Part shown: one piece after another, positions 2,927 to 64,000 of the stretch
Layout: each line of letters opens with the position of its first letter
Numbering within the stretch: the stretch's first letter is position 1
From: a virus
Virus record (IMG/VR): IMGVR_UViG_2077657010_000001
Coordinates: 34,323 to 98,322 of that record
Direction: 5' to 3' (one strand)
DNA: 64,000 nt
Program-made: the position numbers and the translations under genes
Notes under the pieces: model-generated
Seen by the model: only the letters and a program-made list of their open reading frames with translations
Told to the model about the DNA's origin: nothing
Databases searched by the model: none

Positions 2927-2957
2927 AGAGGGAGCATTAGCTCTCTCTTTTTTTTTG
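2927..2957 (+). terminator. Terminator (duplicate copy 2)
   Basis: Same 21 nt AGAGGGAGCATTAGCTCTCTC plus T-run as 2101. Confidence 0.85.
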
Positions 2958-2966
2958 CCTATTTTG

Positions 2967-3047
2967 TTTTCCCCTCACTCTTCTTCTCTTTCTCTTCCCC
3001 CCTTTAAAATCCCCCTTTCTCTATCTCTTCTTCTCTCTCCCCTTTCT
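2967..3047. repeat. Polypyrimidine/polypurine tract with internal repeats
   Basis: About 80 nt almost entirely C/T on + strand; CTCTTCTTCTCT at 2978 and 3025; CCCCTTT three times. Confidence 0.85.
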
Positions 3048-3149
3048 GGTCGCCTCTCCAGTCAGGGCCCCCCACATAGGGGCCCCCTTCCCAAGGAGCG
3101 GCTCAAAGGCGTCTTCAAAAGAAGACTAAGTGCGTAAAAAAATACAGGA

Positions 3150-8435: not shown

Positions 8436-8445
8436 CCAATCACCA

Positions 8446-8468
8446 TTCAGGCATATATCATGAATGTG
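8446..8468 (+). promoter_or_regulatory. Putative early promoter motif
   Basis: TTCAG-GCATATATCAT-GAAT-GTG fits the window consensus. Confidence 0.55.
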
Positions 8469-8501
8469 GTATTAGGTAATGTATCTTTTAAGGATGTTAT
8501 T

Positions 8502-13398: not shown

Positions 13399-13917
13399 AT
13401 GAAGATTATCACTTCGTTGCTCCTGGCATTGCTTTTGGTAGGGTGCCAACTTCCTGACGCTGTATTTAAGACGCATAATCATCGCCTCACTGACGAGGAA
13501 GTGGCGCGTATTGTAAATATGGTCAAGGAGGATGGCAATAAGAATGAGGTATTCATGATGGAGTTAAAGGCACCGCCTGATATTTCCGATTATGAAAACC
13601 TGTTGAGCAATGAGCGTGTACTGCGTAAGTATTCTGATCATCTTAATTTATACTTTGAGCAGGTATTCGCTTATACCGCAACATTCAACCTCTATGCAAA
13701 AGAACGTGGGTGGAAGCCTCCTGAGCATCCACCTGTGTGTCGAATTCTTGATATAGATACGTTAGACGAATTACCTCCATTTGAGAATGTGGGTGAATCT
13801 AAAGACCTTAATTGGCAACTGGCCGATTATATCAAACGTCTTAAAGTGTTCTATGGCCAAGAATCCAATGAACAGGAAGTAACCAAAATTTTCCAACGTT
13901 TTTTATGCGTTTATTAA
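13399..13917 (+). CDS. Lipoprotein, candidate o-spanin
   Basis: MKIITSLLLALLLVG-C lipobox; Pro-rich segments (PPEHPPVC, ELPP). Confidence 0.6.
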   Translation: MKIITSLLLALLLVGCQLPDAVFKTHNHRLTDEEVARIVNMVKEDGNKNEVFMMELKAPPDISDYENLLSNERVLRKYSDHLNLYFEQVFAYTATFNLYAKERGWKPPEHPPVCRILDIDTLDELPPFENVGESKDLNWQLADYIKRLKVFYGQESNEQEVTKIFQRFLCVY

Positions 13918-13924
13918 AGTAAAA

Positions 13925-13968
13925 AAAATACAGGCGATGTGGCGTTCTCGCCATGTCCCTGTATTTTT
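13925..13968. terminator. Terminator-like hairpin
   Basis: AAAATACAGG..ATGTGGCG-TTCT-CGCCATGT..CCTGTATTTTT. Confidence 0.6.
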
Positions 13969-16639: not shown

Positions 16640-16673
16640 TAGGGTAGGTCTCGTGCCTACCCTAGTTTATTTT
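16640..16673 (+). terminator. Rho-independent terminator
   Basis: TAGGGTAGG..CCTACCCTA plus T-rich tail. Confidence 0.7.
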
Positions 16674-16693
16674 GGGTATATATCACTGTGATG
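16671..16693 (+). promoter_or_regulatory. Putative early promoter motif
   Basis: TTTGG-GTATATATCAC-TGTG-ATG. Confidence 0.5.
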
Positions 16694-16703
16694 TAATGTA
16701 ATT

Positions 16704-59031: not shown

Positions 59032-59069
59032 AAAAAAAAATGGCGGAGTGGTCAAAAGACCACCCACCA
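59032..59069 (-). terminator. Rho-independent terminator (minus strand)
   Basis: Minus TGGTGGGTGGTC-TTTT-GACCACTCCGCCA plus T9. Confidence 0.85.
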
Positions 59070-59393
59070 AAAGTATCAACGTGTAATTCAGTCATTCACT
59101 ACACTACAGCGACTGATGAGCCGCTGGGACATTGGCTTATAGTAAGCCATTGATTACATTTAATATTAAGTAGGCGTCCTCGTCTACACATCCCAATAAC
59201 GTGCGCATTTATACGACCGATCGTGGTCATCGCACGACGAGGACGTGCTCGCCTCACAGGTTCACTATATGTGGTCTCGCCTACTAAAGACCACAAAGAG
59301 GCTTCTATGTTATAAATATCATAAGTGCAGGACATCATTTTAGATGTGGAAAGTACACCAACAATGCCTGCAGATAATACAACAATATCCATA
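59032..59393 (-). ncRNA. Candidate structured ncRNA 1 (family unrecognised)
   Basis: Nine or more nested helices, a potential 8 nt pseudoknot, several G-U pairs favouring the minus strand, terminator at 3' end. Confidence 0.5.
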
Positions 59394-60736: not shown

Positions 60737-60795
60737 GTTTATTTGCTCCGCATTTAAAAAAGGAATATGTCGACTAAGGTGTTAGTCAAATAAAG

Positions 60796-60818
60796 TTTAG
60801 GTATATGTCATTAACGTG
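60796..60818 (+). promoter_or_regulatory. Putative early promoter motif
   Basis: TTTAG-GTATATGTCAT-TAAC-GTG. Confidence 0.55.
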
Positions 60819-60852
60819 AACATAGGCAACTAAATTACTAAGGAGATTCACT

Positions 60853-61626
60853 ATGTATGCCCAAAAGCGTTCAACCTTTAATCGTAAATACAAAGACGGT
60901 CAGCTTGTAACATCGGCTGGTCGTGTTGAAGTAACACATGTACCTACAGGTGCGGCGTGCACTGTAGAACTGCTAGAAGACACAGCCATATTACGGAATG
61001 GCCGTATGACGCTCATTAACAATGAGTTGTCTGAAGTACTACATTTATGTGGCGCACAAGGTGATATCATCATTCACCACACTAAAATCAACTACGGGAT
61101 ACCTAAGTGGTTAACCTATAAGATTCACAACGAGCCGTTCAAGGAGTGGAAAGACGACATCGTCATTTACCTCACGGAGCCGCCCAAATGCCCACAATAT
61201 ATGGCCGAGAATCTACATGGTGTCAAAGTCATGGTATTGGAAAAAAGACAGCTCAAAGTAGAAGAGTTGACTGATGCCATTGTAGATAAATCTAAAAGTA
61301 TTTATTACGACGGGATGATTGTTAGTTGTAAGAACTTACAAGGAGAGGTGGAGAAGTTTCACTTCTTACCACAGCGCTATGCGCAAGGCCGTGTTGTAGA
61401 CATTGGGGAAGATTGGGTCATTGCTGAGGTTAAGCGTTCTGATGACGATCAACCCCACATTGTGAGGGTGCCATCATTATCCAATGCGGTGAGGAATTAT
61501 ATCGACAAAAATGAGAAAGACAACGTCATCGGTAGGATGTTGAAAGTACAATACACCTCATACATCCCAGGCGATCGTGTAGAGAACTTCTCATCCCCTG
61601 TCGCATTATTTATCATTAATCAATAG
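60853..61626 (+). CDS. Degenerate ATP-dependent DNA ligase-like protein
   Basis: Ligase-like ordered motifs (RNGR, QGDII, YDGMIV, IGRMLKVQY, FSSPV) but no KxDG. Confidence 0.45.
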   Translation: MYAQKRSTFNRKYKDGQLVTSAGRVEVTHVPTGAACTVELLEDTAILRNGRMTLINNELSEVLHLCGAQGDIIIHHTKINYGIPKWLTYKIHNEPFKEWKDDIVIYLTEPPKCPQYMAENLHGVKVMVLEKRQLKVEELTDAIVDKSKSIYYDGMIVSCKNLQGEVEKFHFLPQRYAQGRVVDIGEDWVIAEVKRSDDDQPHIVRVPSLSNAVRNYIDKNEKDNVIGRMLKVQYTSYIPGDRVENFSSPVALFIINQ

Positions 61627-61635
61627 GAGGCCAAC

Positions 61636-62055
61636 ATGGACCTTTCATTACGCTTTATTCGTAACGGTGACGTCGATGTTCGTCGCCGTAGTATCACTAT
61701 CATGAAACACCGTGACAGTGAGAGACCGATACTCTCTATGCAAGGTAAGCCTGAGTCGGGTGACTATGTCGCCCACCTTAGGTTGGCTGATGGCAAAGAG
61801 TTGCTGGTAAAGGCCAGCTCCGAATACGTATTCCGTCATTTGAGCCGACGTACGATCAAAAGCAACATCAACCAAGCCGTGGAGAAATACGGCGTGTCAG
61901 TGGTAGACTTCGGTCTACTGTATAACGATAATGGTGTTTATCACATTAACGGTAAACCAATCATGGTTGATGCTGATGACGAATCATCCAGTTTGGTGGT
62001 GCATTACTCTAACAAGCCAACCAACAAAAGCAGTTGGTTAGATAACCGTTTTTAA
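61636..62055 (+). CDS. Hypothetical protein
   Basis: AGGAGG RBS, 139 aa. Confidence 0.8.
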   Translation: MDLSLRFIRNGDVDVRRRSITIMKHRDSERPILSMQGKPESGDYVAHLRLADGKELLVKASSEYVFRHLSRRTIKSNINQAVEKYGVSVVDFGLLYNDNGVYHINGKPIMVDADDESSSLVVHYSNKPTNKSSWLDNRF

Positions 62056-62064
62056 GGAGTCGAA

Positions 62065-62334
62065 ATGGAAAGTGTCTATTGGAACCTGACAGAAAAGAAG
62101 CTGCCAGTAAAGACTGTAGGCCCGCTACCGAGCAACATCTCGGATGAACTGCACTTTGTATTACACGGTGGTGTTGCAAACAACACCATTCGTCTTGCAG
62201 AGATGATGGATATGGTCGGCGCAACACACGTTGTCGTCGACTATAATGTCTGTGATGACAGTGTACGGTATATCATCGATAACCTGAAGATCATCCGTCC
62301 AGGTGCGGTGATTGATGTCAATGACATCGTTTAA
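62065..62334 (+). CDS. Hypothetical protein
   Basis: AAGGAG RBS, 89 aa. Confidence 0.75.
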   Translation: MESVYWNLTEKKLPVKTVGPLPSNISDELHFVLHGGVANNTIRLAEMMDMVGATHVVVDYNVCDDSVRYIIDNLKIIRPGAVIDVNDIV

Positions 62335-62343
62335 CTATTGGCT

Positions 62344-62373
62344 AGAGTGTGGTAGACTCCACACTCTTTTTTT
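62344..62373 (+). terminator. Rho-independent terminator
   Basis: AGAGTGTGG-TAGACT-CCACACTCT plus T-run. Confidence 0.85.
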
Positions 62374-62395
62374 ATTTGTATCTAGGAGAACAACT

Positions 62396-62776
62396 ATGTC
62401 TTGGGAAGTACATTTCACGAACCTGCCGATTCAAGATGAATACGATGTTTGTGAGCATCTAAAGCATGCAAATACGGCACCACATATTGTCGGTGAAAAT
62501 GATTCGATGGGGCCAGTACATCGCATGGCAATGTGTCAGTCGTGTTATGACGAGCATGTGGCGAAACGTGATGCGGAACTAGAGCCTTGCCACGATTGCA
62601 ACACTTTATTACCTAACAGTAAGCTACACACATGGAAGTGGTATGAATTTGATCCACGTCAAGGCGATGAGCCGCTGTTAATCTGTGGCGTATGCTGGAA
62701 TATGGACAAACACCAGCAGCGCATCAAAGAGTCACGCAATGCTCGTATGATTGACAGTGAGGTCTATGGCGATTAA
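62396..62776 (+). CDS. Cys-rich zinc-finger-like protein
   Basis: AGGAG RBS at ATG62396; CEH, CQSC, CHDC, CGVC. Confidence 0.75.
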   Translation: MSWEVHFTNLPIQDEYDVCEHLKHANTAPHIVGENDSMGPVHRMAMCQSCYDEHVAKRDAELEPCHDCNTLLPNSKLHTWKWYEFDPRQGDEPLLICGVCWNMDKHQQRIKESRNARMIDSEVYGD

Positions 62777-62784
62777 AGGCAAAT

Positions 62785-62820
62785 AAAAAAAGGTACTGGG
62801 GAGGTTACCCTCCCCATACC
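62785..62820 (-). terminator. Rho-independent terminator (minus strand)
   Basis: Minus GGTATGGGGAGG-GTAA-CCTCCCCAGTACC plus T7. Confidence 0.8.
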
Positions 62821-63076
62821 ACCCGGTGAGACATTCCGGTTTACGAGTAGACGACTAATGGCAGAAGTCGTTTTACGTCGATAAACGATAGCTTGACTGG
62901 CAAGTGCTTGAGCATATCGTTATTAGGGGTTGGGGGGTGAGACACCGCGACCCCATGGGTGTATCGGAACCCGACAAAAAATCACCCCCCGTGTAGAAGT
63001 TTATAACAGCTTAGCTGACATGCTATCACGAATGGGAAATGAGCAAGAAACACATTCGTACTGTAACTTCTACATA
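62785..63076 (-). ncRNA. Candidate structured ncRNA 2 (family unrecognised)
   Basis: ORF-free ~290 nt of back-to-back helices; minus-strand TATG at the 5' edge and terminator at the 3' edge; no minus-strand gene upstream to explain the terminator. Confidence 0.6.
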
Positions 63077-63121
63077 ATAATAACCTACCTGTAAAAAATA
63101 CCATTAGTAAAGGAGTTTAAG

Positions 63122-63490
63122 ATGAGTGACGTACAAGTTAAAGATAAACCCACAATAGTGACAGTTGTGATGGGTGAAGTAACTGACAGTTTTGGTGTAG
63201 ATATACTCAATGGTGAGGTCATCACAACACGTGGTGATGAGGTGTGGGTATCAACACCAGAGGGTGTGATTGTAGGGCATCAAAAAGAAAACTATATCGT
63301 AGGTAAAGATGCATTCCCTATATTCATAGATGACGACATTCGTCACGATTGGTGTCAGTATGCTAAGATGTTACATGGTATAGATCTAACTGGTGTCAAA
63401 TCGGCGGGCGAGATAATGTACCAAGGCCTTGTCGATGAGGGGATTGTAAAAGCAGGGATAAAAGCGGCCAGGGTCTATGCCCTTAAATAA
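63122..63490 (+). CDS. Hypothetical protein, paralog of 1545..2090
   Basis: AAGGAG RBS; shared motif blocks. Confidence 0.8.
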   Translation: MSDVQVKDKPTIVTVVMGEVTDSFGVDILNGEVITTRGDEVWVSTPEGVIVGHQKENYIVGKDAFPIFIDDDIRHDWCQYAKMLHGIDLTGVKSAGEIMYQGLVDEGIVKAGIKAARVYALK

Positions 63491-63495
63491 AAAAG

Positions 63496-63546
63496 TTTCA
63501 GATATATATCATTAATGTGAAGAGAGAAGACAATCCCTCTTCACAT
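63496..63546 (+). promoter_or_regulatory. Putative early promoter plus 5' stem-loop, copy 2
   Basis: TTTCAGATATATATCATtaatGTGAAGAGAGAAGACAATCCCTCTTCACAT. Confidence 0.7.
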
Positions 63547-63569
63547 CATCATTAGTAAGGAGATTAGTT

Positions 63570-63944
63570 ATGAGAAAGTTACAGAATATCGTAATTGAAG
63601 CTGAATCTGTACTCAATACAATTCTACCAGTTATTGAATATAGCCCAGAATGGGCCAATGGTACAGGTTACCTTGATAATGCAGTTAAGGTCTCCATAGA
63701 AGTACCGTCCAAATTCTGGGATGATAAAAACCGTTTCGGGATTATCATTCCGCTAGGGGAGCGTGATAATCTGGTTGTCTTCGAGCGGTATAGTAACGGA
63801 GAAGACGACATCATTGTCTACAACGCCGCCACACGTTCTCCGTGGCGCAGTCTAATAGAGACCGCCATCGGCGGTCGTGTTGTGGCAGAAAAAGGTGAGC
63901 TCGTCACAGAGCTCATTGTAGCTATCACGCTACAAAACAAATAA
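63570..63944 (+). CDS. Hypothetical early protein
   Basis: TAAGGAG RBS, 124 aa. Confidence 0.8.
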   Translation: MRKLQNIVIEAESVLNTILPVIEYSPEWANGTGYLDNAVKVSIEVPSKFWDDKNRFGIIIPLGERDNLVVFERYSNGEDDIIVYNAATRSPWRSLIETAIGGRVVAEKGELVTELIVAITLQNK

Positions 63945-63950
63945 AAAACT

Positions 63951-63973
63951 GAGGGCTTCGGCCCTCTTTTTTT
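63951..63973 (+). terminator. Rho-independent terminator
   Basis: GAGGGC-TTCG-GCCCTC plus T7. Confidence 0.92.
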
Positions 63974-64000
63974 GCCTCAATGGAAAGTCGATCTCTCTCC

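Follow-up and report, generated by a model that had tools for sequence, protein, structure and literature searches.

The window analysed here comprises 64,000 nucleotides, the final 64 kb of a 98,322-bp IMG/VR virus contig with an estimated completeness of 42%. Among the genes of the window are those for a large terminase and for a split multisubunit RNA polymerase of the phiKZ type, and it therefore derives from a giant phage that has RNA polymerases of its own. The source is an uncultured phiKZ/SPN3US-like giant (jumbo) phage, and its nearest cultured relatives are the Vibrio phages pVa-21 and pVp-JHP1101, with identities of 66-69% for the terminase, 58% for a 435-aa protein, and 50-53% for a 127-aa protein. 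For giant phages with their own RNA polymerases, we know of few non-coding RNAs and of none with an assigned function.

The gene for the 127-aa protein and a downstream gene for a 122-aa protein are separated by a 345-nt gap (62777-63121; Table 1). As the earlier note on this DNA had stated, both genes lie on the plus strand and the gap is without a credible ORF. The longest ORF (54 aa) starts with TTG and has no Shine-Dalgarno sequence, and stop codons interrupt every frame throughout. A PHROG scan of the seven frame segments of the gap gave no match, and tblastn of ~1,400 ORF translations (from the contig and from the corresponding pVa-21 and pVp-JHP1101 loci) against the gap gave noise only. 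A protein-coding gene or pseudogene was ruled out by the stops, the missing ribosome-binding site (RBS), and the lack of residual protein similarity. The gap also could not be assigned to tRNA, tmRNA, or another RNA family, in agreement with the earlier reading. The cmscan search against Rfam 15 returned nothing at E values up to 10 in the region 61500-64000 and nothing at the gathering score in the whole window, the pVa-21 and pVp-JHP1101 loci had no Rfam match either, and ARAGORN found no tRNA or tmRNA.

The 127-aa gene is bounded by terminators on both sides. A plus-strand terminator (62345-62366) ends 29 nt before its ATG, and a minus-strand terminator lies on its other side; a promoter of its own was not recognisable in the region 62345-62820. 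In pVa-21 and pVp-JHP1101, the homolog of this gene is found at a different locus, between the terminase and the 435-aa gene. The 127-aa gene therefore looks like a shuffled cassette. For the 122-aa protein, just two close relatives were found, P0001 (96% identity) and P0002 (85% identity). No plus-strand terminator was found between 62776 and 63490, and a bidirectional terminator is located at 63951-63966.

Table 1. Features of the gap, its surroundings, and the corresponding units of two Vibrio phages. Positions are those of the window unless another sequence is named.
Feature	Position	Strand	Description
Upstream flanking gene	62396..62776	+	126-127-aa Cys-rich protein, PHROG 8344
U7 tract	62785..62791	-	Then AUUUG (62784-62780); predicted RNA 3' end
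Terminator hairpin	62792..62820	-	12 bp, one bulged G, GUAA (GNRA) loop; -22 kcal/mol
Hairpin CCGG/CCGG	62823..62839 (62823-26/62836-39)	-	9-nt loop
Hairpin ACGACU/AGUCGU	62851..62871 (62851-56/62866-71)	-	Flanking pairs can extend the stem
Hairpin AACGAUA/UAUCGUU	62884..62921 (62884-90/62915-21)	-	Structured loop
Domain with 9-bp closing helix GGGGGGUGA/UCACCCCCC	62932..62990 (62932-40/62982-90)	-	Two inner stems
Three-way junction with 10-bp closing helix UGUAGAAGUU/AACUUCUACA	62992..63074 (62992-63001/63065-63074)	-	Inner hairpin 63028-34/63053-59
TATG, candidate phiKZ-type start	63073..63076	-	Read from the sequence
Boundary motif AATGGTATTTTTTAC (plus strand: GTAAAAAATACCATT)	63091..63105	-	15 nt, located 16 nt before the TGTA of the first helix
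Downstream flanking gene	63122..63490	+	122 aa, no family; Shine-Dalgarno 63110-15
GTA-A(6-8)-TAC copies	3133-3144, 13917-13929, 63091-63101; before the window -20715, -14729	+ (A-run)	
Early-promoter-like element (C)AGATATATATCA	63488-63543, 1453-1500, 60795-60830, 16670-16700, 8445-8475	+	Genes downstream
pVa-21 unit	L037 1978-2296 = KY499642 178777-179095	-	ORF-less, unannotated
pVp-JHP1101 unit	L038 1949-2265 = PQ451753 176148-176464	-	ORF-less, unannotated

The hairpin next to the 127-aa gene is an intrinsic terminator on the minus strand only, as had been proposed earlier. On this strand, the 12-bp stem is followed by the U7 tract, whereas in the plus-strand reading it is followed by ATACCACC, with no T-run. 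The 10-mer TTTTTATTTG occurs in 11 copies in the 98-kb contig, and nine of these directly follow a GC-rich hairpin. We therefore regard it as the terminator tail signature of this phage. Among the TTTTTATTTG sites, the hairpin at 62792-62820 is the most stable one. The other minus-strand terminators that the scan detected between plus-strand genes were all bidirectional hairpins with T-runs on both sides. The gap thus contains a minus-strand stop signal between two plus-strand genes that the annotated mRNAs do not explain, which upholds this part of the earlier note. No other single observation supports the finding as strongly as this minus-only terminator.

The remainder of the gap can form the helices that had been listed previously, and all of them are present in the minus-strand MFE fold. 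This fold has -96.6 kcal/mol (z -3.8 against dinucleotide shuffles), with 86 Watson-Crick and 2 G-U pairs; domains 1 and 2 alone fold with -51.3 kcal/mol (z -3.8 against shuffles). The plus strand folds into a more stable structure of -102.5 kcal/mol (z -5.5 against dinucleotide shuffles) with 6 G-U pairs. The earlier argument that G-U pairs favour the minus strand therefore fails, as there are more of them on the plus strand and this strand folds better. An exceptional structure was not supported either. The native sequence of this genome folds ~6 kcal/mol better than its dinucleotide shuffles, with a wide spread, and in a ranking of 654 native 300-nt windows by their folds the region is 17th for the plus strand and 36th for the minus strand. 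When the terminator was left out (62822-63076, 255 nt), the body was ordinary compared to native 255-nt windows, with z of -1.25 for the plus strand and -0.72 for the minus strand; 9% (plus) and 21% (minus) of the native windows fold as well. Judged by these ranks and z values, the helices alone are therefore no evidence for an RNA gene.

The 5' end of a minus-strand unit had been predicted from phiKZ. The non-virion RNA polymerase of phiKZ recognises late promoters with the sequence TATG, in which G is the +1 position and TATG is necessary, and middle promoters with the consensus AAanTTACc centred at ~-24 (PMC4666361). A TATG is indeed present on the minus strand at 63076-63073, overlapping the closing helix of the three-way junction, as the earlier note had stated. 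The motif shows, however, no enrichment before genes. Within the 100 nt preceding each of 70 genes, TATG was observed 40 times compared with 31 times expected, its reverse complement CATA was observed 38 times, and the genome has one TATG per ~225 nt on each strand. Moreover, pVa-21 and pVp-JHP1101 have TCTG where the window has TATG. The early-promoter motif (A/G)TATAT(A/G)TCA with its upstream A-tract is absent from the minus strand of 62816-63951, and none of the promoter classes that can be recognised in this genome is represented on the minus strand of the gap region. The 8-mer TTATTATG was rejected as a promoter motif. It occurs in 10 copies compared to ~6.5 expected by chance (a composition-based estimate), and its gene-proximal copies read TTATTATGGAG, so that TTATTATG mostly reflects RBS context. 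As a side observation, an early-promoter-like element consisting of an A-tract and (C)AGATATATATCA, often with a stem-loop after it, recurs upstream of plus-strand genes (Table 1). Its copy at 63488-63543 is multi-copy in the contigs of relatives (depth 146 vs 27), and similar elements also precede genes in pVa-21 and pVp-JHP1101.

Another candidate is the motif at the boundary between the gap and the 122-aa gene. Its consensus, AATGGTA(A)TTTTTTAC followed by 16 nt and TGTA, is common to the window, pVa-21, and pVp-JHP1101. On the minus strand, the final C of the TTAC core (63094-91) in TTTTTTAC lies 18 nt before the G of TATG, which is within 3 nt of the phiKZ middle-promoter spacing. The motif is quasi-palindromic, and its plus-strand reading, AAAAATACC, matches the phiKZ middle-promoter consensus at 8 of 9 positions. 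The pattern GTA-A(6-8)-TAC, an 11-13-mer, is present in five copies in the contig, far above the chance expectation, and the A-run is on the plus strand in all five. One of these copies (3133-3144) adjoins a polypyrimidine tract at 2941-3092. In each Vibrio phage, WTTTTTTACWG has four conserved copies, whereas the control pattern read backwards has none. The extended motif, with four to five copies per genome, is too rare to represent a promoter class of general use. When read in the A-run orientation, some copies lie directly upstream of an early-promoter core, and others precede a Shine-Dalgarno sequence by 5 nt (122-aa gene), ~14 nt (187-aa gene of locus L039), or ~21 nt (a gene in locus L003). 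Since the motif is quasi-palindromic and such copies exist, it may therefore serve the plus strand. It is possibly a promoter element of the minus-strand unit, or else of the plus-strand 122-aa gene. In pVa-21 and pVp-JHP1101, no plus-strand gene follows the copy of the motif that is located at the unit.

The homolog search that had been proposed earlier was negative. The blastn search with the gap had no match in 50,697 phage genomes, and searches for the helix pattern, the terminator 20-mer, and the motif-plus-spacing pattern in IMG/VR and the JGI metagenomes retrieved just chance hairpins and coding matches. The locus was likewise not retrieved with the 122-aa protein, the 127-aa protein, or a single 435-aa query, and none of the 39 jumbo-phage loci collected from the alignment of the 435-aa protein contains the unit. 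Close relatives were present in sequencing runs. A relative with ~93% identity covers 62302-63494 in one piece in three runs (X1-X3, from two studies, Logan contigs). The differences listed in or next to the gap are four single-base homopolymer indels (62784 +A, 62950 +C, 62975 +A, and 63092 +A). The first of these adds one T to the U-tract of the terminator, and the second and third are in homopolymers inside the 62932-62990 domain. A separate relative in run X7, whose 127-aa gene is ~85% identical, could be compared over 62785-62833 of the gap, as it has no contig over 62834-63116; this segment is identical at 48 of 49 positions. None of the runs listed as containing the sequence is on record as RNA.

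A unit of the same kind was found at the same place in pVa-21 and pVp-JHP1101 (Table 1). There, homologs of the 257-aa and 139-aa genes are followed by two small plus-strand genes, a plus-strand terminator, and the opposing ORF-less unit. In pVa-21, the terminator of the plus-strand operon faces the terminator of the unit, which is the classic convergent layout. In both phages, the terminator of the unit is unidirectional, with a GAAA (GNRA) loop and with TTTTTTATTTGCCTT as its tail. The sequence AATGGTAATTTTTTAC precedes this terminator by ~300 nt, and 16 nt after AATGGTAATTTTTTAC TGTA starts the first helix; in the window, AATGGTATTTTTTAC is likewise followed by 16 nt and by the TGTA with which the first helix starts. 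Motif and U-run are 306 nt apart in the window, compared to 299 nt in pVa-21 and 297 nt in pVp-JHP1101. The units of the Vibrio phages are thus like that of the window in their neighbourhood, opposing strand, lack of an ORF, 5' motif, length of ~300 nt, unidirectional GNRA terminator, and tail. They are unlike it in the body, which cannot be aligned, and in the predicted domain layout. Another difference is that in the window the 127-aa gene is inserted between the plus-strand terminator and the unit.

The two Vibrio phages differ from each other by a 1.18-kb indel, the end of which lies exactly at the 5' edge of the motif. The segment present in pVp-JHP1101 and absent from pVa-21 (L038 2268-3444; PQ451753 176467-177643) contains a 380-aa minus-strand gene that belongs to no known family. 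The product of pVp-JHP1101 gene 209 matched no Pfam or PHROG family. In pVa-21, the unit is part of a 1.5-kb stretch with no annotated CDS (L037 1863-3383; KY499642 178662-180182), which also carries a 130-nt minus-strand purine-rich tract and a second copy of TTTTTTTACTG in divergent orientation. One pVa-21 copy of the motif adjoins a purine/pyrimidine tract (L037 2340-2470).

Between pVa-21 and pVp-JHP1101, the body of the unit is 76.6% identical, compared to 65.7% at four-fold degenerate sites of the neighbouring genes (z ~2.4), and the identity is 85-90% in the terminator and in the first 80 nt at the 5' end. Indels of 1 nt and 2 nt between the two units exclude a coding function. The RNAalifold consensus of the pair was more stable on the minus strand (-66.0 kcal/mol) than on the plus strand (-47.3 kcal/mol), and the pVa-21 unit alone gave a fold z of -1.95 for the minus strand and -0.45 for the plus strand. 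In this comparison of two sequences only, 4 compensatory and 10 wobble-compatible pair changes were counted, concentrated in the hairpin at columns 199-229, the loop of which is invariant. Controls with slid partners gave 0-1 such changes, and 21 of 500 shuffles reached the observed score. The covariation within this pair can be regarded as suggestive but not as proof.

Beyond the 15-nt motif, the window unit is no more similar to the units of the Vibrio phages than shuffled sequence is. A covariance model built from the 5' half of the pVa-21 and pVp-JHP1101 units had its best match within 62000-64000 at 63004-63105 on the minus strand (10.4 bits, E 0.06), but the search of the whole window with this model did not find the site. 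In the opposite direction, a single-sequence covariance model of window domains 1-2 had no match in pVa-21, pVp-JHP1101, or the 39 loci. An 18-mer shared by pVa-21 and pVp-JHP1101 did not occur in IMG/VR, and the nearest relatives in IMG/VR (L039 and L040) carry the motif and lack the opposing terminator. We therefore regard the window unit and its counterparts in pVa-21 and pVp-JHP1101 as positional analogs rather than as proven homologs in the RNA body.

Since an equivalent unit lies at the same place in two cultured Vibrio phages, the gap probably contains a small non-coding RNA gene. Specifically, we see an even chance that it is a small convergent minus-strand non-coding transcription unit. 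Its predicted product is a non-coding RNA of ~290-310 nt from the minus strand of the gap. Its synthesis would begin within a few bases of 63073 on either side, downstream of the conserved motif (63091-63105), proceed through the five hairpin domains, and end at the hairpin 62792-62820 with its U-tract (62785-91). The RNA would be stabilised by its 5' stem and by the terminator hairpin at its 3' end, and it could then accumulate as a single discrete species of ~290 nt. Our preferred guess is that such a stable RNA would act in trans. Alternatively, it might pair with read-through plus-strand mRNA across the junction of the 127-aa and 122-aa genes, because there is no plus-strand terminator between them. 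An RNA-duplex search for targets among 94 translation-initiation regions had its best value at -43.7 kcal/mol, which is not convincing, as the minima of shuffled RNAs were -37.5 +/- 2.7 kcal/mol, with the lowest at -44.4 kcal/mol. A wider proposal, which we put forward tentatively and with some doubt, is that the units of the window, pVa-21, and pVp-JHP1101 belong to one fast-evolving family of stable ~300-nt non-coding RNAs in this lineage of giant phages, which encode multisubunit RNA polymerases, each RNA with its own promoter element AATGGTA(A)TTTTTTAC and terminator, located in the accessory region after the terminase module and acting in trans during infection. Members of such a family could be, for example, protein sponges, regulators of host or phage mRNAs, or counter-defence RNAs.

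The same features could be left from an orphaned 3' end, i.e., what was once the 3' UTR with the terminator of a minus-strand gene, the gene itself having been lost or replaced during cassette shuffling, or a mere stop for stray antisense transcription from downstream, with no discrete functional RNA. The region is hypervariable, as seen from the different location of the 127-aa gene in the relatives, and in pVp-JHP1101 the 380-aa minus-strand gene abuts the motif and would have the unit as its ~300-nt 3' UTR. The ordinary fold stability, the lack of a recognised promoter, and the absence of shared body sequence between the window and pVa-21 units point in the same direction. However, pVa-21 lacks the 380-aa gene and keeps the unit intact, the indel stops exactly at the motif, and the body of the unit is better conserved than synonymous sites. 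In addition, the gap holds no trace of protein homology, and the bidirectional terminator at 63951-63966 limits incoming minus-strand transcription. We consider an orphaned 3' end unlikely.

A function on the plus strand would not explain the presence of a minus-strand terminator that is strong, unidirectional, and of the type typical of this phage. The gap would then be a structured intercistronic spacer or 5' leader of a transcript from the 127-aa to the 122-aa gene, the motif would be the promoter/RBS module of the 122-aa gene, and the terminator would be incidental or an antisense guard. This is consistent with the better fold of the plus strand and its greater number of G-U pairs, with the lack of a plus-strand terminator up to 63490, with the A-run on the plus strand in every GTA-A(6-8)-TAC copy, and with the position of the A-run motif shortly before the Shine-Dalgarno sequences of the 122-aa, L039, and L003 genes. 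In pVa-21 and pVp-JHP1101, by contrast, no plus-strand gene follows the motif and the consensus fold favours the minus strand, and in the window the helices are clear of the Shine-Dalgarno sequence at 63110-15, so that a plus-strand role seems distinctly improbable. It is more improbable still that the gap is functionless non-coding DNA left between shuffled cassettes, with hairpins at the chance level of the genome. Such a remnant would agree with the 9-21% of native windows that fold as well as the body and with the absence of homologs in the phage genomes, IMG/VR, and the JGI metagenomes. It would not account for the quality of the terminator and its signature tail, the architecture conserved in three phages, the undisrupted gap in the ~93% relatives, the terminator segment kept in the run X7 relative, or the high gene density elsewhere.

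The minus-strand RNA gene that we favour would have documented parallels. In the giant Pseudomonas phages 201phi2-1 and phiKZ, ONT-cappable-seq mapped intergenic and 5'UTR-derived sRNAs, in which a start site is closely followed by an intrinsic terminator, with filtering to <250 nt (PMC11512511, PMC10914365). Like these sRNAs, some of which are intergenic, the window unit would be a short start-plus-terminator unit of a nucleus-forming jumbo phage. Unlike them, it is predicted from sequence, is ~300 nt long, and belongs to another phage lineage, whereas the sRNAs of 201phi2-1 and phiKZ were mapped experimentally and are <250 nt. Its layout of several hairpins and a terminator is also like that of Rfam families, tRNA, or tmRNA, with no family match. 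The candidate would join a documented kind of giant-phage intergenic sRNA, which has a start and a terminator of its own, and would be unrelated to any curated family. If the prediction is true, the accessory region of this lineage gains an RNA gene with its own transcription, and a candidate promoter element becomes available for a polymerase that lacks characterised promoters in the clade. The positional counterpart in two cultured Vibrio phages makes the prediction directly testable. If it is false, the gap is an example of the orphan terminators that are left by cassette shuffling.

Two other structured regions of the window coincide with ORFs. The most stable 300-nt folds of the contig, at 1580-2029 (-139 kcal/mol on the plus strand, z -4.8 against native windows), sit inside a 186-aa ORF at 1530-2090. 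The region 59032-59393, which is also among the best-folding windows of the genome and had been named candidate structured RNA 1, overlaps a 97-aa minus-strand ORF running from 59392 down to 59099. This ORF matched no Pfam or PHROG family. It has the strong Shine-Dalgarno sequence GTGGAGGTGG followed by ATG, and it lies between the 435-aa gene on its upstream side and a minus-strand terminator (59046-59065) on its downstream side. The region 59032-59393 may thus be a small gene instead of an RNA.
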